Source: Escherichia coli
Lineage (GTDB): Bacteria > Pseudomonadota > Gammaproteobacteria > Enterobacterales > Enterobacteriaceae
Reading direction: 5' to 3' (one strand)
Assembly (NCBI RefSeq): GCF_044324785.1
Contig: NZ_CP172127.1
DNA length: 64,000 bases
A program made the translations under genes and the position numbers. Below are positions 3,321-57,869 of the stretch, in pieces. The notes under the pieces were generated by a model that saw nothing but the letters and a program-made list of their open reading frames with translations, had not been told where the DNA came from and did not search any database. Position 1 is the first letter of the stretch. Each line of letters starts with the position of its first letter.

Positions 3321-3379
3321 GCTATGATTAGCCGCTATTTTTTTGTCCTGAATGATGTTTGACACTACCGAGGTGTACT

Positions 3380-4777
3380 ATTTTTACCCGAGTCGCTAAT
3401 TTTTGCCGCAAGGTGCTAAGCCGCGAGGAAAGCGAGGCTGAACAGGCAGTCGCCCGTCCACAGGTGACGGTGATCCCGCGTGAGCAGCATGCTATTTCCC
3501 GCAAAGATATCAGTGAAAATGCCCTGAAGGTAATGTACAGGCTCAATAAAGCGGGATACGAAGCCTGGCTGGTTGGCGGCGGCGTGCGCGACCTGTTACT
3601 TGGCAAAAAGCCAAAAGATTTTGACGTAACCACTAACGCCACGCCTGAGCAGGTACGTAAACTGTTCCGTAACTGCCGCCTGGTGGGTCGCCGTTTCCGT
3701 CTGGCTCATGTGATGTTTGGCCCGGAGATTATCGAAGTTGCGACCTTCCGTGGACACCACGAAGGTAACATCAGCGACCGCACGACCTCCCAACGCGGGC
3801 AAAACGGCATGTTGCTGCGCGACAACATTTTCGGCTCCATCGAAGAAGACGCCCAGCGCCGCGATTTCACTATCAACAGCCTGTATTACAGCGTGGCAGA
3901 TTTTACCGTCCGTGATTACGTTGGCGGCATGAAGGATCTGAAAGACGGCGTTATCCGTCTGATTGGTAACCCGGAAACGCGCTACCGTGAAGATCCGGTA
4001 CGGATGCTGCGCGCGGTACGTTTTGCCGCCAAATTGGGTATGCGTATCAGTCCTGAAACCGCAGAACCGATCCCTCGCCTGGCTACCCTGCTGAACGATA
4101 TCCCACCGGCACGCCTGTTTGAAGAATCTTTGAAACTGCTGCAAGCGGGCTACGGTTACGAAACCTATAAGCTGCTGTGTGAATATCATCTGTTCCAGCC
4201 GCTGTTCCCGACCATTACCCGCTACTTCACGGAAAATGGCGACAGCCCGATGGAGCGGATCATTGAACAGGTGCTGAAGAATACCGATACGCGTATCCAT
4301 AACGATATGCGCGTGAACCCGGCATTCCTGTTTGCCGCCATGTTCTGGTACCCACTGCTGGAGACGGCACAGAAGATCGCCCAGGAAAGCGGCCTGACCT
4401 ATCACGACGCTTTCGCGCTGGCGATGAACGACGTGCTGGACGAAGCCTGCCGTTCACTGGCAATCCCGAAACGTCTGACGACGTTAACCCGCGATATCTG
4501 GCAGTTGCAGTTGCGTATGTCCCGTCGTCAGGGTAAACGCGCATGGAAACTGCTGGAGCATCCTAAGTTCCGTGCGGCTTATGACCTGTTGGCCTTGCGA
4601 GCTGAAGTTGAACGTAACGCTGAATTGCAGCGTCTGGTGAAATGGTGGGGTGAGTTTCAGGTTTCCGCGCCACCAGATCAAAAAGGGATGCTTAACGAGT
4701 TGGATGAAGAGCCGTCACCGCGTCGCCGTACTCGTCGTCCACGCAAACGCGCACCGCGTCGTGAGGGTACCGCATGA
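3380..4777 (+). CDS. pcnB: poly(A) polymerase I
   Basis: ...[21 protein letters not shown]... [18 protein letters not shown] nucleotidyltransferase motif; annotated start is ATT at 3380 (non-canonical); track ORF opens at TTG 3359. Confidence 0.85.
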
Positions 4778-20812: not shown

Positions 20813-21017
20813 ATCTCTAACCATATGATTTAAAAACAAATCACTTCGCACGGGCAGGTTTTGGCACCGCAACAAAGCGCAAGACATGCAGTATACCAGT
20901 AAAACTATTCATTCGCGGAATCTGTTAATAAAGCTCAAATTGTGATGACGATCACACATGTTAAAACCTATAATTAATTGCTACTAAAATATTAATGAAT
21001 TGAAATGGTGTCTCTTT

Positions 21018-23408
21018 ATGGCAATTAACAATACAGGCTCGCGACGATTACTCGTCACGCTAACAGCCCTTTTTGCAGCGCTTTGCGGGCTGTATCTACT
21101 CATTGGCGGAGGCTGGCTGGTCGCGATTGGCGGCTCCTGGTACTACCCTATCGCTGGCCTTGTGATGCTCGGCGTCGCCTGGATGCTGTGGCGCAGTAAA
21201 CGCGCCGCGCTTTGGCTATACGCCGCCCTGCTGCTCGGCACCATGATTTGGGGCGTCTGGGAAGTTGGTTTCGACTTCTGGGCGCTGACTCCGCGCAGCG
21301 ACATTCTGGTCTTCTTCGGCATCTGGCTGATCCTGCCGTTTGTCTGGCGTCGCCTGGTCATTCCTGCCAGCGGCGCAGTTGCCGCTCTGGTGGTGGCGTT
21401 GCTGATTAGTGGCGGTATCCTCACCTGGGCCGGATTTAACGATCCACAGGAAATCAACGGCACCTTAAGCACCGATGCCACACCTGCCGAAGCCATCTCA
21501 CCGGTTGCCGATCAGGACTGGCCTGCGTATGGTCGCAATCAGGAAGGTCAACGCTTTTCACCACTGAAGCAAATTAACGCCGATAACGTTCACAACCTGA
21601 AAGAAGCCTGGGTGTTCCGTACAGGCGATGTGAAACAGCCGAACGATCCGGGCGAAATCACCAATGAAGTGACGCCGATTAAAGTGGGCGATACGCTTTA
21701 CCTGTGTACCGCTCACCAGCGCCTGTTTGCGCTCGATGCCGCCAGCGGCAAAGAGAAATGGCATTACGATCCTGAACTGAAAACCAACGAGTCCTTCCAG
21801 CACGTAACCTGCCGCGGCGTCTCTTATCATGAAGCCAAAGCAGAAACGGCCTCGCCGGAAGTGATGGCGGATTGCCCGCGTCGTATCATTCTTCCGGTCA
21901 ATGATGGTCGTCTGATTGCGATTAACGCTGAAAACGGCAAGCTGTGCGAAACCTTCGCCAATAAAGGCGTGCTCAATCTGCAAAGCAATATGCCGGACAC
22001 CAAGCCGGGTCTGTATGAGCCGACTTCGCCGCCGATTATCACCGATAAAACCATCGTGATGGCCGGTTCAGTCACCGACAACTTCTCAACCCGCGAAACG
22101 TCTGGCGTGATCCGTGGTTTTGATGTCAACACCGGGGAGCTGTTGTGGGCTTTTGATCCTGGTGCGAAAGATCCTAACGCAATCCCGTCTGACGAACACA
22201 CCTTTACCTTTAACTCGCCAAACTCGTGGGCACCAGCGGCCTATGACGCGAAGCTGGATCTGGTGTATCTGCCGATGGGCGTGACCACGCCGGATATCTG
22301 GGGCGGTAATCGCACACCGGAACAGGAACGTTATGCCAGCTCGATTCTGGCGCTGAATGCCACTACCGGGAAACTGGCGTGGAGCTACCAGACCGTTCAC
22401 CACGACCTGTGGGATATGGATCTTCCGGCACAGCCGACGCTGGCGGACATCACCGTTAATGGTCAGAAAGTGCCAGTTATTTACGCTCCGGCGAAAACCG
22501 GCAACATTTTTGTGCTCGATCGTCGTAACGGCGAACTGGTGGTTCCGGCCCCGGAAAAACCGGTTCCACAAGGTGCAGCGAAAGGCGATTACGTCACCCC
22601 GACCCAACCGTTCTCTGAACTGAGCTTCCGTCCGACGAAAGATTTGAGCGGTGCGGATATGTGGGGAGCCACCATGTTTGACCAGCTGGTGTGCCGCGTG
22701 ATGTTCCACCAGATGCGCTATGAAGGCATTTTCACCCCGCCATCTGAACAGGGTACGCTGGTCTTCCCTGGTAACCTGGGGATGTTCGAATGGGGCGGGA
22801 TTTCCGTTGATCCGAATCGTGAAGTGGCAATTGCCAACCCAATGGCACTGCCGTTTGTTTCGAAACTGATCCCGCGCGGTCCTGGCAACCCGATGGAGCA
22901 GCCGAAAGATGCCAAAGGCACGGGTACGGAATCCGGCATTCAGCCGCAGTACGGTGTACCGTATGGTGTCACGCTCAACCCGTTCCTCTCACCGTTTGGT
23001 CTGCCATGTAAACAGCCAGCATGGGGTTATATCTCGGCGCTGGATCTGAAAACCAATGAAGTGGTGTGGAAGAAACGTATTGGTACGCCGCAGGACAGTA
23101 TGCCGTTCCCGATGCCTGTACCGGTGCCGTTCAATATGGGTATGCCGATGCTGGGCGGGCCAATCTCCACAGCGGGTAACGTACTGTTTATCGCCGCTAC
23201 GGCAGATAACTACCTGCGCGCTTACAACATGAGCAACGGTGAAAAACTGTGGCAGGGCCGTTTACCGGCGGGTGGTCAGGCTACGCCAATGACCTATGAA
23301 GTGAATGGCAAGCAGTATGTGGTGATCTCCGCAGGCGGTCACGGTTCATTTGGTACGAAGATGGGCGACTATATTGTGGCTTATGCGCTGCCGGATGATG
23401 TGAAGTAA
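21018..23408 (+). CDS. gcd: quinoprotein (PQQ) glucose dehydrogenase, membrane-bound
   Basis: MAINNTGSRRLLVTLTALFAALCGLYLLIGGGW... N-terminal TM segments plus PQQ beta-propeller domain, 796 aa. Confidence 0.95.
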   Translation: MAINNTGSRRLLVTLTALFAALCGLYLLIGGGWLVAIGGSWYYPIAGLVMLGVAWMLWRSKRAALWLYAALLLGTMIWGVWEVGFDFWALTPRSDILVFFGIWLILPFVWRRLVIPASGAVAALVVALLISGGILTWAGFNDPQEINGTLSTDATPAEAISPVADQDWPAYGRNQEGQRFSPLKQINADNVHNLKEAWVFRTGDVKQPNDPGEITNEVTPIKVGDTLYLCTAHQRLFALDAASGKEKWHYDPELKTNESFQHVTCRGVSYHEAKAETASPEVMADCPRRIILPVNDGRLIAINAENGKLCETFANKGVLNLQSNMPDTKPGLYEPTSPPIITDKTIVMAGSVTDNFSTRETSGVIRGFDVNTGELLWAFDPGAKDPNAIPSDEHTFTFNSPNSWAPAAYDAKLDLVYLPMGVTTPDIWGGNRTPEQERYASSILALNATTGKLAWSYQTVHHDLWDMDLPAQPTLADITVNGQKVPVIYAPAKTGNIFVLDRRNGELVVPAPEKPVPQGAAKGDYVTPTQPFSELSFRPTKDLSGADMWGATMFDQLVCRVMFHQMRYEGIFTPPSEQGTLVFPGNLGMFEWGGISVDPNREVAIANPMALPFVSKLIPRGPGNPMEQPKDAKGTGTESGIQPQYGVPYGVTLNPFLSPFGLPCKQPAWGYISALDLKTNEVVWKKRIGTPQDSMPFPMPVPVPFNMGMPMLGGPISTAGNVLFIAATADNYLRAYNMSNGEKLWQGRLPAGGQATPMTYEVNGKQYVVISAGGHGSFGTKMGDYIVAYALPDDVK

Positions 23409-26505: not shown

Positions 26506-27300
26506 TTGAAAAAACTGAAACTGCATGGCTTTAATAATCTGACCAAAAGTCTGAGTTTTTGTATTTACGATATCTGCTACGCCAAAACTGCCGAAGAACG
26601 CGATGGTTATATTGCTTATATCGATGAACTCTATAATGCCAACCGTCTGACCGAAATCCTGTCAGAAACCTGTTCCATTATCGGGGCCAATATTCTTAAC
26701 ATCGCCCGCCAGGATTACGAACCACAGGGTGCCAGCGTCACTATTCTGGTGAGTGAAGAACCGGTCGATCCGAAACTTATCGACAAAACAGAACACCCCG
26801 GTCCGCTGCCAGAAACGGTCGTTGCCCATCTCGATAAAAGTCATATTTGCGTACATACCTACCCGGAAAGTCATCCTGAAGGTGGTTTATGTACCTTCCG
26901 CGCCGATATTGAAGTCTCTACCTGCGGCGTGATTTCTCCGCTGAAGGCGCTGAATTACCTGATCCACCAGCTTGAGTCCGATATCGTAACCATTGATTAT
27001 CGCGTGCGCGGTTTTACTCGCGACATTAACGGTATGAAGCACTTTATCGACCATGAGATTAATTCGATTCAGAACTTTATGTCTGACGATATGAAGGCGC
27101 TGTATGACATGGTGGATGTGAACGTCTATCAGGAAAATATCTTCCATACCAAGATGTTGCTTAAAGAGTTCGACCTTAAGCACTACATGTTCCACACCAA
27201 ACCGGAAGATTTAACCGACAGCGAGCGCCAGGAAATTACCGCTGCGCTGTGGAAAGAAATGCGCGAGATTTATTACGGGCGCAATATGCCCGCTGTTTAA
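26506..27300 (+). CDS. speD: S-adenosylmethionine decarboxylase proenzyme
   Basis: TTG start after SD ggagaag; [25 protein letters not shown]... 264 aa. Confidence 0.93.
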
Positions 27301-27305
27301 CGGCT

Positions 27306-27340
27306 CTGGCGGAGCTCCCAGGCTCCGCCAGATTTATTTA
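27306..27340 (+). terminator. Rho-independent terminator after speED
   Basis: Stem ctggcggagc / gctccgccag followed by atttattta; overlaps the convergent yacL stop. Confidence 0.65.
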
Positions 27341-27700
27341 CTTCTGCTGCACGAAATTACGGTAAGCCGCCACCACCTGCAGAAAATCCTCAACGCCACA
27401 TAGCGACAGGCTTTCTTCATCGTAGTAGTTCATCCCCTCTTCCATTTCATCGCCAGCGAATTCCAGTTGATTGGCGCGAACCATCACTTCTTCGCCGTCC
27501 ATCCATAGCGTGTACTCATGCCCTGCCCGCTGCCAGGAACGTTCGCTACCTTTGAGCGTGCGCGCGGCGTCTTCCACTTCATCAAGCAAGGCCAGGTTTT
27601 CTTTCACCTCTTCGTTAAACCAGTGCCCGACCACTTCATGCCCCATGGACATACGCACCTTTACCACTCCGGTAATATCACGCAGAAATTCGTAATCCAT
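27338..27700 (-). CDS. yacL: UPF0231 protein YacL
   Basis: [36 protein letters not shown]... 120 aa; track ORF extends 16 codons upstream. Confidence 0.85.
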
Positions 27701-27802
27701 AGTGTGTTCCTCTGCTCCCGGCAATGCGCCGAAATCGCATTGCGCCATTGATGTAATTATCGCAGCCTTAACGGAGAAAAACAGCGGAACGGCGATGGTT
27801 TA

Positions 27803-27840
27803 GAAATAAAAAATGCCCGGGAATCTCATTCACCGGGCAT
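27803..27840 (-). terminator. Rho-independent terminator after acnB
   Basis: Stem atgcccgg / ccgggcat; on the minus strand it is followed by ttttttatttc. Confidence 0.7.
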
Positions 27841-27874
27841 TGTGTCGTTTATGCGCAGCGCGTGCGCTTACTTA

Positions 27875-30472
27875 TTACACCGCAGTCTGGAAAATCACCC
27901 CATCGGCTTTTTCGGTGTACTGAGAAAGCTGGTTGAAGTTCAGATAACGATAAGTATCAACGGCAGTTTTATCTACTTGCGCAACGTAGGTCTGGTACTC
28001 TTCCGGCGTCGGTAGTTTGCCAATCAGCGCCGCAACAGCAGCCAGTTCCGCAGAAGCCAGGAAGACATTCGCGCCAGTACCCAGACGGTTCGGGAAGTTA
28101 CGGGTAGAGGTGGAAACCACCGTCGCACTGTCTGCTACACGCGCCTGGTTACCCATACACAGGGAACAGCCAGGGATCTCGATACGCGCACCACTCTTAC
28201 CGAAGACGCTGTAGTAGCCTTCTTCGGTCAACTGCGCGGCGTCCATACGGGTTGGCGGTGCCACCCACAGGCGGGTCGGCAACTGACCTTTGTGCGCATC
28301 CAGCAGTTTACCAGCGGCACGGAAGTGACCGATGTTAGTCATGCAAGAACCGATAAACACTTCGTCGATCTTCTCGCCCTGTACCGCAGACAGCGGACGA
28401 GCGTCGTCCGGGTCGTTCGGTGCACAGAGGATTGGCTCTTTAATATCCGCCAGATCGATGTCAATCACTGCCGCGTATTCCGCATCTGCATCGGCTTCCA
28501 GCAGCTCAGGATTCGCCAGCCATTTTTCCATGCCCTGAATACGGCGTTCCAGGGTACGACGATCGCCGTAACCTTCCGCGATCATCCACTTCAGCAGGAC
28601 GATGTTGGAGTTCAGGTATTCAATGATCGGTTCTTTGTTCAGCTTGATGGTACAACCGGCAGCAGAACGCTCGGCAGACGCATCGGTCAGCTCAAATGCC
28701 TGCTCAACTTTCAGATCCGGCAGACCTTCAATTTCCAGAATGCGGCCAGAGAAGATGTTTTTCTTACCTTTCTTCTCAACGGTCAGCAGACCTTGTTTGA
28801 TCGCATACAGCGGAATGGCGTGTACCAGATCGCGCAGGGTGATGCCCGGCTGCATTTTGCCTTTGAAGCGCACCAGAACGGATTCCGGCATATCCAGCGG
28901 CATTACGCCTGTTGCGGCTGCAAATGCCACCAGACCAGAACCCGCCGGGAAAGAGATACCGATCGGGAAACGGGTATGGGAGTCACCACCGGTACCGACG
29001 GTATCCGGCAGCAGCATACGGTTCAGCCAGGAGTGGATTACGCCGTCACCCGGACGCAGCGACACACCGCCACGGTTCATAATGAAGTCCGGCAGCGTGT
29101 GGTGTGTGTTTACGTCAACTGGCTTCGGATACGCCGCGGTGTGGCAGAAAGACTGCATCACCAGGTCAGCCGAGAAGCCCAGGCACGCCAGGTCTTTCAG
29201 TTCATCACGGGTCATCGGGCCAGTGGTGTCCTGAGAACCAACAGAAGTCATTTTCGGTTCGCAGTACGCGCCCGGACGAATGCCTTTCACACCGCAGGCA
29301 CGACCTACCATTTTCTGCGCCAGCGAGAAGCCGCGATCGCTCTCAGCGACATCTTTCGCCTGACGGAACACATCGCTGTGCGGCAGGCCAAGTGCTTCAC
29401 GCGCTTTGGTGGTCAGGCCACGCCCGATAATCAGCGGAATACGGCCGCCAGCACGCACTTCATCAATCAGCACGTCGGTTTTCAGTTCGAAGGTCGCCAG
29501 CAGTTCGCCGGTTTCGTGGTTACGCACTTCACCTTTGTACGGGTAAACGTCAATTACGTCGCCCATGTTCAGGTTAGAGACGTCCACTTCAATTGGCAGT
29601 GCACCCGCATCTTCCATCGTGTTAAAGAAGATGGGTGCAATTTTACCGCCGAGGCACAAACCACCGCCGCGTTTGTTCGGCACATGTGGAATATCATCAC
29701 CCATAAACCACAGTACGGAGTTCGTGGCGGATTTACGCGAAGACCCCGTACCCACAACGTCACCGACGTACGCCAGCGGGAAACCTTTCTGTTGCAGAGC
29801 TTCGATTTGCTTGATCGGACCAACAACGCCTGGCTGGTCTGGCTCAATACCTTCACGGGCGTTTTTCAGCATCGCCAGCGCGTGCAGTGGGATATCCGGG
29901 CGAGACCACGCATCCGGTGCCGGAGAAAGGTCATCGGTGTTGGTTTCGCCTGTGACTTTGAAGACGGTAACGGTCAGTTTTTCAGCCAGCGCCGGGCGAT
30001 TCAGGAACCATTCGGCATCCGCCCAGGACTGCATTACCTGCTTCGCATATTCGTTGCCTGCTTTGGCTTTCTCTTCTACGTCATAGAAGTTATCGAACAT
30101 CAGCAGCGTGTGAGAAAGTGCTTTGGCAGCAATCGGTGCCAGTTTGGCATCATCCAGCGCGTCGATCAGCGGATGAATGTTGTAACCACCCTGCATGGTA
30201 CCCAGCAGTTCGATGGCTTTTTCCGGAGTCAGCAGAGGGGATTTGGCTTCGCCTTTAGCGATAGCAGCCAGGAAGCCTGCTTTGACATAGGCGGCTTCAT
30301 CGACGCCAGGGGGAACACGGTTGGTTAATAGATCTAACAGGAATTCTTCTTCGCCCGCGGGCGGGTTTTTCAGCAGCTCTACAAGTGCGGCCATTTGGTT
30401 TGCATCCAGGGGTTTGGGCGCAATCCCCTCAGCGGCACGCTCAGCTACGTGCTTACGGTATTCTTCTAGCAC
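27875..30472 (-). CDS. acnB: aconitate hydratase B (2-methylisocitrate dehydratase)
   Basis: GTG start behind SD gaggag; [38 protein letters not shown]... 865 aa; track ORF extends 51 codons upstream. Confidence 0.95.
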
Positions 30473-30826
30473 GACGGTTCTCCTCGCTCTCATTGTCATA
30501 GTGCGGCAGGCGATTCTCTTCACGCTCCTGTGAGACAGCAGTTTGTAGGGTAAATGCCCAGTACCGCAACGGGCAGAATAGCAGGATTTTGACGATGTGT
30601 TAATCCGTTTACAAAAAAGCAACATAAAAAAGTGGCTGAATCGTTAAGGATGGTCTAGAGATTGTTTCCCTCCGTAAAAACTTCGTTAATTCGCATGGTG
30701 ATAATCACCTTTCTCAACGAATCCCAAGATTAGTCAAAATTTAAACTACCGCCTCTTTATACTCGGATTCTCAGCACCTGCGGGTGGCAGTTCGCCGACC
30801 ATTGCGATTTCCTTGAGATCCGAATT

Positions 30827-50866: not shown

Positions 50867-53572
50867 TTATTGCAGGCGACCATGGCACTGCTTGTATTTT
50901 TTACCAGAACCGCACGGGCAAGGATCGTTACGTCCTACTTTGCGCTCACCGGTTTGCGCCGCCAGTGCAGCTGCGGCTGCAGAGTCGTCATCCTGATGGC
51001 TAAGCTGCTGCATTTGCGCTAAACGCTCGGCTTCCATACGACGCTGTTGTTCCAGCTCCTCAACCTCTTCAGGCATACGTACCTGAACTTTGCTCAGCGT
51101 GCTGATAACTTCATATTTCAACGACTCCAGCATCGCTGCAAACATGGAGAACGATTCACGTTTGTATTCCTGCTTCGGATCTTTCTGTGCATAGCCACGC
51201 AGGTGGATACCCTGACGCAGATAGTCCATCGCTGCCAGGTGCTCTTTCCACAGGGAGTCAAGCGTTTGCAGCATGACGCCTTTCTCGAAGTGACGCATCA
51301 TCTCAGCACCAACCACTTCTTCTTTACGCTGATACACTTCGATGGACTGCGCCAGAATGCGCTCACGCAGCGTCTCTTCATGCAGTTCTGGTTCTTTATC
51401 CAGCCACTCGGCAATTGGCAAATCGAGGTCGAAATCGTTCTTCAGACGTTCCTGCAGCCCCGGAATATCCCACATTTCTTCCAGCGACTGTGGCGGAATG
51501 TAGGCATCAATGGTCGCTTTGAACACATCTTCACGAATGCTGTTGATGGTTTCGCTCACATCGCTGACATCCAACAGTTCGTTACGCTGGGAGTAAATGG
51601 CGCGACGCTGATCGTTAGCCACGTCATCATATTCCAGCAGTTGCTTACGAATGTCGAAGTTACGACTTTCAACTTTACGCTGGGCGTTGGCAATCGCTTT
51701 AGTCACCCACGGGTGTTCAATGGCTTCGCCTGGCTTCATACCCAGTTTACGCATCATGCCGGATACTCGGTCGGAAGCAAAAATACGCATCAGCGCATCT
51801 TCCATCGACAGGTAGAAACGGGAAGAACCAGCATCCCCCTGACGACCAGAACGACCGCGCAACTGGTTATCGATACGACGGGATTCGTGACGCTCGGTAC
51901 CGATGATATGCAGGCCACCTGCTGCCAGTACCGCATCGTGACGTACCTGCCAGTCGGCTTTAATTTTTTCAATTTGCTCTGCGGTCGGATTTTCCAGCGC
52001 GGCAACTTCTGCCTGCCAGCTACCACCGAGCACAATATCTGTACCACGACCCGCCATGTTGGTCGCGATAGTCACCGCAGCCGGATAACCTGCCTGAGCA
52101 ACAATCGCCGCTTCGTTGGCATGGAATTTGGCGTTCAGGACATTGTGCTTAATACCGGCTTTGGTCAGTTCGTTTGACACCAGCTCCGATTTTTCGATGG
52201 AGATAGTACCCACCAGCACCGGCTGGCCTTTCGCAGTACGCTCTTTGATATCTTCAATGATCGCCTGAATTTTTTCCGCTTCAGTCATGTAGACCAGGTC
52301 CGGCAGATCTTTACGAATCATTGGACGGTTGGTCGGAACAACGACGGTATCCAGCTTGTAGATGGAGCTGAATTCGAAAGCTTCGGTATCAGCAGTACCG
52401 GTCATCCCCGCCAGTTTTTCATACAGACGGAAGTAGTTCTGGAAAGTGATCGACGCCAGCGTCTGGTTTTCGTTCTGGATCTGTACACCTTCTTTCGCTT
52501 CCACAGCCTGGTGCAGGCCATCGGACCAACGACGTCCCTGCATGGTACGACCGGTGTGTTCGTCAACGATGATAACTTCACCATCTTTAACGATGTAGTC
52601 GACGTCTCGGGTAAACAGCGCATGAGCGCGCAGCGCCGCCGTTACGTGGTGCATCAGCATGATGTTGGCCGGAGAGTACAGAGACTCCCCTTCATCCATG
52701 ATGCCTTCTTTCACCAGCAGTTCTTCAATCAGCACCAGACCACGTTCGGTCAGGTTCACCTGGCGAGATTTTTCGTCCACCGAGAAGTGGCCTTCGCCCT
52801 GGAAGGTTTCGGAGTCTTCTTTTTCCTGACGGATCAGGTGCGGAATAATTTTATTCACGCGTTTATACATTTCCGAGCTGTCTTCTGCCGGGCCGGAAAT
52901 GATCAGCGGTGTACGCGCTTCATCGATCAGGATGGAGTCCACTTCGTCCACCAGCGCATAGTGCAGTTTACGCTGTACACGTTCTTCAGGGCTGAACGCC
53001 ATGTTATCGCGCAGGTAGTCAAAGCCGTATTCGTTGTTCGTACCGTAAGTGATGTCAGCTGCGTAAGCTTCACGCTTCGCCGGTGCTGGCATGCCCGGCA
53101 GGTTGATACCGACAGTCAGGCCAAGGAATTCAAACAGCGGACGGTTGTTTTCGGCGTCACGTTGCGCCAGGTAGTCGTTGACGGTAACAACGTGTACGCC
53201 CTTACCGGTTAATGCGTTCAGGTAAGCAGGCAGCGTTGCGGTCAGGGTTTTACCTTCACCGGTACGCATTTCGGCGATGCAGCGTTCGTTAAGAACCATA
53301 CCGCCGAGTAACTGAACGTCGAAGTGACGCATACCAAAGACGCGCTTACTTGCCTCACGCACCACGGCGAAAGCTTCCGGGATCAGATTTTCCAGCACTT
53401 CGCCTTTTTCCAGACGTGCACGAAACTCTGCGGTTTTCCCTTTCAGTTCTTCGTCGGAGAGTTTTTCCATCTCCGGTTCCATGGCATTGATGATGTTGAC
53501 CACTTTGCGCATCCGGCGCAGGGTGCGATCGTTACGACTACCGAAAACTTTAGTTAATAATTTGATTAGCAT
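50867..53572 (-). CDS. secA: preprotein translocase ATPase SecA
   Basis: [43 protein letters not shown]... 901 aa, C-terminal zinc-binding [14 protein letters not shown]. Confidence 0.97.
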
Positions 53573-55394: not shown

Positions 55395-56546
55395 TTAATC
55401 AGCTTGCTTACGCAGGAATGCTGGGATATCCAGATAATCCGGCTCTTTCGCAGTTTGCGGTGCATTGTCATTCACGACTTTAGCAACCGGCTTCTGCTCC
55501 TGGGTCAGCGGAGCCATCCCGTGCTGCTGGTAGCGATCCATCACTGGCTGCTGAACCTGCTTATTGGTCACCAGAGTGATTTCAGGACGTTTGTCCATGC
55601 CGATACCTGTCGCAACAACAGTTACGCGCAGCTCGTCATTCATATCCGGGTCAAGAGAAGTACCGATAACCACAGTCGCGTTGTCGGAAGCAAATGCACG
55701 GATGGTGTTACCTACCGTTTCGAACTCATCCAGACGCAGGTCGAAGCCCGCCGTGATGTTAACCAGCACGCCGCGTGCGCCAGACAGGTCGATATCTTCC
55801 AGCAGCGGAGAAGAGATAGCCATTTCAGCAGCTTCTTCCGCACGGTCTTCACCACTCGCCACGCCAGAACCCATCATTGCGTAGCCCATTTCAGACATTA
55901 CGGTGCGTACGTCTGCAAAGTCCACGTTCATCAAACCCGGACGAGTAATCAGTTCAGCGATACCTTGCACAGCGCCTTTCAGTACATCGTTCGCTGCGCC
56001 AAACGCATCCAGCAGGGAGATACCGCGGCCCAGAACTTTCAGCAGTTTGTCGTTCGGGATAGTGATCAGAGAGTCCACATGTTTGGACAGTTCAGTGATC
56101 CCCTGCTCCGCGAATGCCATACGCTTCTTGCCTTCAAAGTTGAAAGGCTTAGTGACGACAGCAACGGTCAGGATACCCAAATCTTTTGCCACTTCAGCGA
56201 CGACTGGTGCTGCACCTGTACCGGTACCACCACCCATACCCGCTGCGATAAAGACCATGTCTGCACCTTCCAGCGCCGCACGCAGTGCATCGCGATCCTC
56301 ATCAGCCGCATTACGGCCAACTTCTGGATTAGCGCCAGCGCCCAGTCCTTTGGTGATACCGCTACCGATTTGAATCGTCTGTCCAACCGCTGTTTTACGC
56401 AGCGCTTGTGCATCGGTATTTACCGCGAAGAATTCAACACCTTCAATGCGCTCGCGCACCATGTGTTCAACAGCATTACCGCCGCCGCCGCCGACGCCGA
56501 TGACTTTAATCACCGCGTCATTGGTAAGTTCCATTGGTTCAAACAT
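55395..56546 (-). CDS. ftsZ: cell division GTPase FtsZ
   Basis: [30 protein letters not shown]... tubulin signature [10 protein letters not shown], 383 aa. Confidence 0.98.
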
Positions 56547-56606
56547 AGTTTCTCTCCGATTTGTGCCTGTCGCCTGAGGCCGTAATCATCGTCGGCCTCA
56601 TAAAAA

Positions 56607-57869
56607 TTAAAACTCTTTTCGCAGCCAACTATTGAGTCGCTTGATCCACGAGCCAACTGATGCTGTAACACGTTTTTCTACTTCAGCTTCACCGTTAAGA
56701 TGTGACTCTTTCCCATAGTGAAGCAATCCCACCGCCGTCGAATAATACGGCTCCTGAGCATAATCCGTTAAACCGGTAATGTTCAGCGGCGCGCCGATAC
56801 GCACTTGCGTATGAAACACGCGCTGAGCACAGGCTGCAAGACCTTCGATCTGCGCTGCGCCACCAGTTAAAACAATGCCTGCCGCCAGGTGATGTTTAAC
56901 CCCTTGTTGGCGAAGCTTTTCCTGCAACTGCAATATCTCTTCGTTGACCAGGTTGAGCAGCTCGGTATAGCGCGGCTCGATCACCTCTGCCAGGGTCTGA
57001 CGTTGCAGACTCCGCGGCGGACGACCACCTACGCTCGGCACTTCCACGCTCTCATCTTTTCCAACGATGGAACCCAGCGCACAACCGTGGCGAACTTTAA
57101 TCGCTTCGGCGTCGCTTGGCGGCGTGCCAAAGGCGTAAGCGATATCACTGGTCACGACATTGCCAGCATAAGGAATTACCTTAGTGTGGCGCAATGCCCC
57201 ACCGGTATAAACGGCGATATCCATTGTACCACCACCGATATCGACGACGCAGACACCCAGTTCACGTTCATCTTCCGTCAATACCGAATAACTTGATGCC
57301 AGTCCGGCAAATATCAGTTGGTCAACTTTCAGCCCACAACGTTCAACCGCTTTGACGATGTTTTTCGCCATATCGTTGTGACATGTGATCAGGTGCACTT
57401 TTGCCTGCATCCTCACGCCCGAAAGTCCTACCGGATTCTTGATCCCTTCCTGATAGTCAATCGCATACTCTTGCGGGATCACATGCAGCACACGATGCTC
57501 ATCGCGCACACGCACCGATTTCGCGGTATGGACGACGTTTTCCACATCTTCTTGCGTCACTTCTTCTTCAGAAATAGGCACCATACCAATTTCATTCTGG
57601 CAGCTGATGTGCTTACCAGAAAGCGCCAGATATACCGAAGAGATCTGACAATCTGCCATCAATTCTGCCTGGTCAATGGCGCGTTGTACGCACTTGACCA
57701 CGGATTCGAGGTCGTTCACCCCGCCTTTATCCATACCACGTGACGGGCAGCTGCCCACGCCAATGATATTGACCATACCGTCGGGCAGAACTTCCCCTAC
57801 TAAAGCGGCAACCTTCGCGGTACCAATCTCCAGTCCTACTACCAGTTTTCTGTCCGTCGCCTTGATCAT
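56607..57869 (-). CDS. ftsA: cell division protein FtsA (actin-like ATPase)
   Basis: [53 protein letters not shown]... 420 aa. Confidence 0.97.

Follow-up and report, generated by a model that had tools for sequence, protein, structure and literature searches.

Long antisense reading frames opposite acnB, aceE and other codon-biased genes of Escherichia coli are very probably shadow ORFs

Antisense frames in the window

The DNA analyzed here (the window) is a 64,000-nucleotide stretch of Escherichia coli contig NZ_CP172127.1, an ordinary segment of the E. coli chromosome. The sense genes acnB, aceE, aceF, secA, and ftsZ were named after their annotation in near-identical E. coli entries of RefSeq. 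An initial annotation, made from the letters alone, had listed five long stop-free frames opposite these genes, and the program-made ORF list contains all five on the plus strand with the coordinates and lengths it gave (Table 1). Two further antisense ORFs lie opposite lpdA and opposite a 472-aa ORF. An unusual origin of acnB, which is 97.1 % identical to its K-12 counterpart, was considered and rejected: the whole window is a mosaic of 96-99.7 % identity, typical of E. coli.

The two longest ORFs belong to open stretches that are longer still. Opposite acnB, the true start of the stop-free stretch is at 28016; this stretch comprises 770 codons and faces sense codons 50-819. The stop that terminates the 678-aa ORF is the complement of sense TTA49. 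The frame opposite aceE is open from 36272, spans 803 sense codons, and ends at sense TCA84 (38702-38704).

Table 1. Coordinates of the sense genes, antisense ORFs, and delimiting codons in the window
Feature	Position	Strand	Basis or remark
Antisense ORF, 678 aa, opposite acnB	28292..30328	+	program-made ORF list
Antisense ORF, 757 aa, opposite aceE	36431..38704	+	program-made ORF list
Antisense ORF, 409 aa, opposite aceF	34338..35567	+	ends at sense TCA237 (35565-35567)
Antisense ORF, 376 aa, opposite secA	51047..52177	+	bounded by sense TTA851 and TCA466
Antisense ORF, 393 aa, opposite ftsZ	55404..56585	+	covers the whole of ftsZ and extends into the ftsA-ftsZ spacer
Antisense ORF, 285 aa, opposite lpdA	32724..33581	+	ends at sense TCA199; absent from the initial annotation
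Antisense ORF, 269 aa, opposite a 472-aa ORF (3359..4777)	3596..4405	-	absent from the initial annotation
acnB, sense gene	27875..30472	-	865 codons, GTG start at 30472
acnB rare-codon cluster TTA46, CTA48, TTA49 in peptide LLDLL	30326..30337	-	codon scan
acnB CTA820	28013..28015	-	sole antisense stop in the gene body in this strain; upstream limit of the open stretch
aceE, sense gene	36290..38953	-	887 codons; TTA/CTA/TCA only as TCA2 and TCA84
StfZ equivalent (non-coding cis-antisense RNA, K-12 b4840)	56352..56903	+	K-12 annotation, PMC9628754, own coordinate arithmetic

All five listed ORFs have an offset of 0 to the sense codons, i.e. they occupy the codon-aligned antisense frame (frame -1), and coordinate arithmetic places both unlisted ORFs in the same frame. 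For seven out of seven ORFs to share one of the three antisense frames, the chance is about 5e-4. In frame -1, an antisense TAA, TAG, or TGA is possible only opposite a sense TTA (Leu), CTA (Leu), or TCA (Ser) codon.

Codon usage of the sense genes

These three codons are scarce in the genes concerned. In acnB they account for 5 of 865 codons (2, 46, 48, 49, and 820), all of them TTA or CTA with no TCA at all, and 73 of the 88 leucine codons are CTG. The counts are 2/887 in aceE, 2/630 in aceF, 2/474 in lpdA, 7/901 in secA, and 0/383 in ftsZ, compared with 22 per 1000 across the window's 36 long ORFs. Across the same 36 ORFs, the longest frame -1 run follows the scarcity of TTA/CTA/TCA.

The depletion is not specific to codons whose complement is a stop. 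Relative to the other long ORFs of the window, the biased genes use TTA at a ratio of 0.14, CTA at 0.16, and TCA at 0.17. Control codons with a non-stop complement gave 0 for AGA, AGG, and ATA, 0.06 for CGG, 0.09 for GGA, 0.13 for CGA, and 0.17 for TTG, and a wider control set including AGT and ACA covered 0-0.24. The depletion of TTA, CTA, and TCA is thus no stronger than that of other rare codons.

Base composition, with a high GC3 disfavouring the A-ending TTA, CTA, and TCA, might produce the same pattern as its main cause, in place of expression-linked translational selection. Among acnB orthologues, several with high GC3 are indeed open in this frame (Pluralibacter gergoviae and Pantoea sp. 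1.19, both at 0.78, and three of four Aeromonas), and those with low GC3 carry dozens of stops (Proteus, 0.28; Providencia, 0.40). Against this, the effect is gene-specific within one genome, the neighbours in the window carrying 13-65 TTA/CTA/TCA per 1000, and acnB reaches a GC3 of just 0.60, yet the G-ending TTG and CGG are as depleted as TTA. Depletion of G-ending codons is the signature of preferred-codon selection and not of GC3. We consider composition very unlikely to be the main cause. The bias of these genes would instead reflect translational selection under high expression, as established knowledge of codon usage suggests.

The few remaining TTA, CTA, and TCA codons are unevenly placed: most occur near the sense 5' end, before codon ~60 to 120. 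When six genes are pooled, they take up 9 of the 44 Leu/Ser positions among the first ~60 codons, compared with 9 of 472 in the bodies of the genes (Fisher P = 3e-6). Among 37 acnB orthologues with high bias, they represent 32 % of Leu/Ser in codons 1-50 and 0.4-14 % per 50-codon bin of the body, with at most 7 % in all bins except one. The nucleotide sequence of the acnB 5' zone is itself conserved, and TTA46 is retained across many Enterobacterales; the rare TCA237 of aceF is likewise retained at the aligned position across many enterics. Because the few stop-complement codons cluster near the sense 5' end, the antisense frame stays open over the remainder of the gene.

Conservation and coding signals of the antisense frames

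The acnB frame was compared with K-12, strain N3, and E. albertii as well as with 78 orthologues. K-12 has antisense stops opposite sense codons 190 and 595, N3 (the closest strain, 98.2 % nucleotide identity) has them opposite 413, 694, and 789, and the E. albertii frame is interrupted five times; these breaks fall on different synonymous sites. Orthologues from Citrobacter and other enteric genera have about 1-19 antisense stops, and those of the low-GC3 Proteus and Providencia 48-59. The aceE frame is interrupted in Salmonella at 474 and 480, with a longest run of 455 codons. It is open over 869 codons in Klebsiella, 782 in Raoultella, and 631 in [Pantoea], with differing boundaries, so that runs of 631-869 codons were found in four of the five genera sampled, a result that counts against a simple shadow-ORF reading. 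The lpdA and aceF frames are likewise unconserved, with stops at varying sites in relatives; for the ftsZ and secA frames, K-12 was the sole comparison.

Within Escherichia, AcnB proteins are 99.0-99.9 % identical and the acnB antisense translations 79-95 %. In the aceE comparison, AceE proteins are 91-96 % identical where the antisense translations reach only 66-79 %. The antisense translations thus appear to diverge at the pace of sense synonymous sites, and, judged from these alignments, the frames do not seem to be maintained, nor their putative proteins to be under purifying selection. Changes that are synonymous on both strands are limited in frame -1 to Gln CAG/CAA, Ser TCG/TCT, and Pro CCG/CCT, which are few and confounded with codon preference.

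The initial annotation had described the translations as low-complexity and Arg/His/Val-rich with no recognisable domains. The last point held: a Pfam search returned no family for four ORFs and, for the fifth, one sub-threshold chance match of 17.6 bits versus a cut-off of 27. Low complexity did not: the amino-acid entropy is 3.94-4.05 bits, compared with 3.89-4.19 in the 36 long ORFs that were treated as sense genes. The three named residues are enriched, but the full skew is broader, with an excess of Phe, Arg, Gln, Thr, Val, and His and a deficit of Lys, Met, Pro, and Tyr.

Rare codons occur in the antisense ORFs at 61-100 per 1000 versus 28, a 2-3.6-fold excess, and their coding score is about 0, compared with 0.21 as the median of the 36 long ORFs. 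Methionine makes up 0.3-0.8 % of the translations, and ATG is nearly absent. No Shine-Dalgarno sequence was found at the first start codons of the ORFs, and in the ribosome-binding-site check no more than a few GTG or TTG codons inside the ORFs reached -6 kcal/mol. A consensus scan of the plus strand at 27300-30700, covering acnB only and weak as evidence, found no sigma-70-like site. A hairpin followed by a T-run at 30350-30365, just past the end of the acnB antisense ORF, belongs to a class found at chance frequency (5 found versus 3.7 expected).

A genuine antisense overlapping protein-coding gene, with its own antisense transcript, could nevertheless be present in one or more of the frames, either as the whole ORF or as a shorter one inside it. 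The Scherer and Neuhaus groups have reported overlapping genes in EHEC and P. aeruginosa, and the claims made for E. coli and Pseudomonas include ORFs of 603, 957, and 1536 nt. Supported examples are pop, opposite ompA in EHEC (PMC7103648), and olg1 and olg2 in P. aeruginosa (PMC8850804), together with ano, laoB, and others. The present ORFs resemble them as long ORFs embedded antisense in annotated, well-expressed genes. Those cases, however, are backed by RNA-seq or Ribo-seq, promoters, ribosome-binding sites, and sometimes purifying selection or phenotypes, whereas the frames described here are broken in close relatives (acnB in K-12, N3, and E. albertii; aceE in Salmonella), lack start signals, and diverge at what appears to be the sense synonymous rate. 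The missing domains, the scarcity of ATG, the excess of rare codons, and, weakly, the promoter scan speak against a hidden gene as well. In addition, a screen for antisense overlapping genes in E. coli mentions acnB, aceE, aceF, secA, and ftsZ neither by name nor by b-number in its text and 18 supplements, although the supplements may use other identifiers.

The ftsZ locus has a real antisense transcript at its 5' end, StfZ, which might be taken to favour such a gene. StfZ is a non-coding regulator of 366-552 nt that starts 9, 117, or 195 nt inside ftsZ, runs antisense into ftsA, and is described as having no ribosome-binding site (PMC9628754). Where it maps in the window, identity to K-12 is 99.2-99.3 %. 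StfZ shares the strand of the ftsZ antisense ORF and overlaps its 3' end, but merely over the last ~78 codons. It cannot encode the 393-aa frame because its start sites lie ~950 nt downstream of the point where that frame begins. Taken together, we regard a genuine overlapping gene as very improbable, in spite of the open aceE frame in E. coli, Klebsiella, and Raoultella. It is just as hard to credit that part of the aceE or acnB frame is translated weakly from pervasive antisense transcription, as a young, strain-variable proto-gene; the best candidate for this would be the aceE frame, with its open runs of 631-869 codons in E. coli, Klebsiella, Raoultella, and [Pantoea].

Expected frame lengths and the shadow-ORF interpretation

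Under average codon usage, a stop-free frame has a probability of 3.5e-10 in acnB and 2.7e-9 in aceE. Simulations that drew codons at the frequencies seen elsewhere in the window gave a median longest run of 122-168 codons and matched the observed length in 0 of 20000 cases for both genes. That some long ORFs arise by chance in any sequence is all that can be said for pure coincidence, long frames with no systematic cause, and it is dismissed in view of these probabilities, the single antisense frame shared by the five listed and two unlisted ORFs, and the correlation of frame length with codon counts across the 36 long ORFs.

A null model built on the codon usage of biased genes as one zone left both frames in the upper tail (P = 0.034 for acnB and 0.023 for aceE). 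We then used the codon usage of comparably biased genes with the 5' zone modelled apart from the body, leaving out the gene in question. This two-zone null, whose split was selected after inspection of the data, yielded a median longest run of 452-491 codons for acnB and aceE and P values of 0.094 and 0.115, respectively (0.74, 0.88, and 0.27 for the remaining genes). A position- and bias-aware null therefore reproduces the ORF lengths. The 678- and 757-aa lengths, called striking in the initial annotation, deserve the word when set against average codon usage (~1e-9) and lose it against this null (P 0.09 and 0.12).

The codon-shuffling null proposed along with that description needs the same care. 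Uniform synonymous shuffling within the gene gave P ~1e-4 for acnB, a value that arises because the rare codons concentrate in the first ~60 sense codons. With rare codons at the five positions given above, it is a misleading null and was set aside, and the 5' enrichment that undermines it is also present in the other genes and in the 78 orthologues. Once position is taken into account, the lengths are unremarkable.

We conclude that the long antisense frames are very probably shadow ORFs, a passive outcome of how the genes on the other strand use their codons, and not hidden genes. The view that they result from strong codon bias under high expression is borne out by the frame -1 rule, the codon counts, the matched depletion of control codons, the two-zone null, and the varying breaks in relatives. 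Every antisense codon in frame -1 is the reverse complement of one sense codon. In the mechanism we propose, strong codon bias leaves acnB, aceE, aceF, lpdA, secA, and ftsZ nearly devoid of TTA, CTA, and TCA, as of other non-preferred codons, and the survivors lie mostly in the first ~60-120 codons, a 5' zone that tolerates or favours rare codons. The antisense frame then runs uninterrupted across the remaining ~45-100 % of each gene, and its length would drift as synonymous substitutions make or delete TTA, CTA, and TCA. Probably no protein is made from these frames.

The phenomenon is already known as a side effect of rare-codon avoidance in highly expressed E. coli genes. Shadow ORFs of this kind, also called antiparallel ORFs, were reportedly described in frame -1 of codon-optimised genes by Silke (Gene, 1997) and Merino et al. 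(NAR, 1994). The ORFs described here show no essential difference from known shadow ORFs: they lie in the same frame, opposite constantly or highly expressed host genes, and show no conservation or coding signals. The TTA/CTA/TCA rule for frame -1 has also been set out in 10.1101/724807, where long antiparallel ORFs opposite constantly expressed genes are ascribed to codon optimisation. An excess of long alternative-frame ORFs in bacteria over the prediction from codon usage, reported by Mir et al. 2012 as cited in PMC7457138 and 10.1101/2020.11.18.388249, would favour overlapping genes; the field accordingly does not treat codon bias as accounting fully for all such ORFs.

Translation of any of these frames would make it the longest known overlapping gene of E. 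coli by a wide margin, and nothing found here favours that. The frames call for caution, since runs of at least 700 codons seem extraordinary when judged by genome-average codon usage (P ~1e-9) and gene finders sometimes call them. The acnB antisense "protein" has occasionally been called in this way, appearing in 47 small public-database clusters as "hypothetical protein", one of them named AcrA/AcrE efflux protein. What is added here is that the 5' clustering of rare codons sets the ends of the frames, and that tests based on uniform codon shuffling become misleading because of it. A uniform synonymous shuffle is an unsafe null for antisense ORFs, as the 5' concentration of rare codons can yield spuriously small P values.

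Frame geometry and stop-forming codons

The five long antisense ORFs reported in the initial annotation were matched exactly, in coordinates and length, in a mechanical ORF list (see table), and each is enclosed by a longer ORF on the - strand. Their sense genes are acnB, aceE, aceF, secA and ftsZ according to the RefSeq annotation of K-12 and of N3, the closest E. coli strain. The window comes from an unremarkable part of the E. coli chromosome: its identity to K-12 is 95.8 to 99.7% in a 1-kb profile, and 5,425 of the 5,426 complete genomes of E. coli contain a match to its acnB region (95-99% identity).

All five ORFs share one phase relative to the sense gene, the codon-aligned antisense frame (frame -1), in which sense and antisense codons pair one to one as reverse complements and TAA, TAG or TGA is possible only opposite a sense TTA, CTA or TCA. 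These three codons average 22 per 1000 in the window's 36 long ORFs, and the longest open frame -1 run tracks their counts across that set. The counts, tabulated for six biased genes (the five and lpdA), directly account for the antisense ORF lengths.

In the remaining four alternative frames, runs are mostly shorter than ~130 codons; the few longer ones lie in the -2 frame of biased genes and are presumably a dicodon effect of the same codon bias. Antisense -2 runs span 220 codons in acnB (27875-30472), 238 in aceF (34383-36275) and 162 in ftsZ (55395-56546), and mostly 40-140 in other genes. The 269-aa shadow ORF, a stop-free non-coding frame, is likewise in frame -1, opposite a 472-aa ORF that is probably pcnB, judging by gene order; both this shadow ORF and a 300-codon frame -1 run opposite gcd (21000-23408) likewise go with low TTA/CTA/TCA counts.

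Antisense features of the window, with TTA/CTA/TCA counts in the sense gene and P values under the two-zone null
Feature	Coordinates	Strand	Length	TTA/CTA/TCA per sense codons	Two-zone P	Source or remark
acnB antisense ORF	28292..30328	+	678 aa	5/865	0.094	mechanical ORF list
aceE antisense ORF	36431..38704	+	757 aa	2/887	0.115	mechanical ORF list
aceF antisense ORF	34338..35567	+	409 aa	2/630	0.74	mechanical ORF list
secA antisense ORF	51047..52177	+	376 aa	7/901	0.88	mechanical ORF list
ftsZ antisense ORF	55404..56585	+	393 aa	0/383	0.27	mechanical ORF list
lpdA antisense ORF	32724..33581	+	285 aa	2/474	0.85	absent from initial annotation
ORF opposite 3359..4777 (+)	3596..4405	-	269 aa			absent from initial annotation
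StfZ-equivalent position (K-12 b4840), ftsA-ftsZ junction	~56352-56903	+				coordinate mapping

Codon bias and expected frame length

When codon usage was taken from the other long ORFs of the window, longest runs had a median of 122-168 codons, none of 20,000 simulations attained the observed acnB or aceE length, and the analytic probability of no stop was 3.5e-10 for acnB and 2.7e-9 for aceE; these frames are thus certainly not due to chance. Expressed as codon frequency in the six biased genes over that in the other long ORFs, depletion of the antisense-stop codons (TTA 0.14, CTA 0.16, TCA 0.17) was not specific, the control rare codons whose complement is a sense codon being depleted comparably or more (AGA, AGG and ATA 0, CGG 0.06, GGA 0.09, CGA 0.13, TTG 0.17, AGT 0.23). 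TTA and TTG, of which only the former yields an antisense stop, are depleted to nearly the same extent, a hallmark of general preferred-codon selection and not of selection for an open antisense frame.

When each gene was simulated from the usage of the other five biased genes (leave-one-out), medians rose to ~230-440 codons, with P = 0.034 for acnB, 0.023 for aceE and no significance elsewhere. A uniform within-gene synonymous shuffle gave P ~1e-4 for acnB, the sole result that seemed interesting. Its cause is the placement of the five acnB TTA/CTA codons, four of them at positions 2, 46, 48 and 49 and the last at 820. Similar 5' concentration is seen in secA (codons 2, 5, 6, 88, 121), aceE (2, 84) and lpdA (28). 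In the pooled genes, the TTA/CTA/TCA share of Leu/Ser codons is 9 of 44 within positions 1-60 versus 9 of 472 in the bodies (Fisher P = 3e-6), and in 37 high-bias acnB orthologues they account for 32% in the first 50 codons and 0.4-7% per 50-codon bin of the body (14% in one bin). Enrichment of rare codons at the starts of bacterial genes is well known.

A leave-one-out null with separate zones for the first 60 codons and the body gave medians of 452 codons for acnB and 491 for aceE. Lengths that had been called striking are therefore as expected for such genes, and of the codon-shuffling nulls, the check originally proposed, the uniform version singles out acnB whereas the two-zone version does not.

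Orthologues and conserved rare codons

A single scan across species-representative genomes yielded 80 acnB loci, ranging from Escherichia to Vibrio, Shewanella and Pasteurellaceae; with the window counted in, 78 sequences were collinear at 865 codons. Antisense frame length tracks TTA/CTA/TCA number and GC3 across these orthologues, and the frame is not conserved even inside Escherichia: antisense stops fall at sense codons 190 and 595 in K-12 (97.1% nucleotide identity) and at 413, 694 and 789 in N3 (98.2%), while E. albertii has five and the gene body of the GTDB E. coli representative is free of them. Counts are roughly 1-19 in other enteric genera and 48-59 in Proteus and Providencia. Stop positions vary from lineage to lineage, the pattern expected if synonymous sites turn over neutrally. 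Inside Escherichia, AcnB is 99.0-99.9% identical versus down to 79-95% for the antisense translation; at the distance of Citrobacter, the values are 96% versus 67-69%.

For aceE, compared in four genera obtained through cluster members, the Salmonella frame is interrupted at codons 474 and 480 (longest run 455), and the runs of Klebsiella (869), Raoultella (782) and [Pantoea] beijingensis (631 codons) differ in their boundaries; against 91-96% identity for AceE, that of the antisense translation is 66-79%. Orthologues of lpdA and aceF from the flanks of the acnB loci behave in the same way. Comparison of secA and ftsZ with K-12 alone (~99% identity) has little power.

Some rare sense codons are themselves conserved. 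Synonymous sites of acnB codons 1-12 (30437-30472), including the GTG start and CTA2, are near-invariant across Enterobacterales, which hints that the translation-initiation region is constrained at the nucleotide level. TTA46, in the stretch of codons 46-49 (30326-30337), is retained from Escherichia to Yersinia, Providencia and Photorhabdus; together with codons 1-12, it may reflect initiation-region constraint or a regulatory RNA interaction. In lpdA (loci L002-L078), codon 28 (34092-34094), TTA in the window and K-12, is TTA/CTA/TCA in 32 of 33 orthologues as far as Rheinheimera (73% amino acid identity), and codon 199 (33579-33581), TCA in the window, belongs to this set of three in most Enterobacterales. 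Over such distances saturation of synonymous sites would be expected, so both codons are likely under some constraint, either nucleotide-level or translational. The aceF TCA237 (35565-35567), the codon that terminates the 409-aa ORF, falls in the region of the third lipoyl domain, and most enteric orthologues have it at the corresponding position (codons 232-238).

Coding signals, database entries and StfZ

The earlier statement that the translations lack recognisable domains agrees with a Pfam scan, in which four of the five had no match and the fifth only a sub-threshold one. They had also been described as low-complexity, but their amino-acid entropy is normal, and as Arg/His/Val-rich, which is correct but incomplete. 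Their composition mirrors preferred sense codons (GAA>TTC and AAA>TTT, Phe; CTG>CAG, Gln; GCG>CGC and CCG>CGG, Arg; GTG>CAC, His), making them rich in Phe, Arg, Gln, Thr, Val and His; they are poor in Lys, Met and Pro. Rare codons (AGA, CGG, GGA and others) reach 61-100 per 1000 versus 28 in the 36 ORFs, and a crude codon-likelihood score is ~0 versus a median of 0.21. ATG is almost absent because it needs the non-preferred sense codon CAT, and no Shine-Dalgarno sequence was found at the first start codons. No promoter-like site was found on the + strand around acnB, which is weak evidence; terminator-like hairpins there are at chance level (5 versus 3.7 expected). One such hairpin with a T-run (30350-30365, +) follows shortly after the end of the acnB antisense ORF.

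A protein search with the acnB antisense translation returned 47 small clusters of homologues, without Pfam domains; the few named ones are 'hypothetical protein' in Dickeya, Aeromonas and a compost metagenome, and one bears an AcrA/AcrE name in P. syringae. Their similarity to the query follows from the conservation of acnB on the opposite strand. Four database proteins (P0008, P0014, P0017, P0020) are antisense-of-acnB ORFs. Such entries are likely shadow-ORF mis-annotations; among them are a Pseudomonas syringae pv. solidagae protein labelled 'Multidrug resistance protein AcrA/AcrE family' and proteins of Dickeya solani and Aeromonas salmonicida labelled hypothetical.

The ftsZ locus does have a genuine cis-antisense RNA, StfZ, whose three isoforms (366-552 nt) start 9, 117 or 195 nt within the gene and carry no RBS (PMC9628754). 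This non-coding RNA overlaps only the last ~78 codons (3' end) of the 393-aa frame and so does not make it a gene. The five genes are unmentioned by gene name or b-number, other identifiers being possible, in the text and 18 supplements of an E. coli overlapping-gene screen. Translation of some part of the antisense frames at a low level is highly improbable.

The frame -1 rule has been stated explicitly (10.1101/724807), and overlapping-gene reviews (PMC7457138, 10.1101/2020.11.18.388249) refer to Mir et al. 2012 as showing that long alternative-frame ORFs are in excess, and argue that some are functional. Codon-bias shadow ORFs are an already known phenomenon. Codon counts, null models, relatives and coding signals support the original reading of a by-product of strong codon bias, and the antisense frames are very probably a passive consequence of codon bias in the sense genes.
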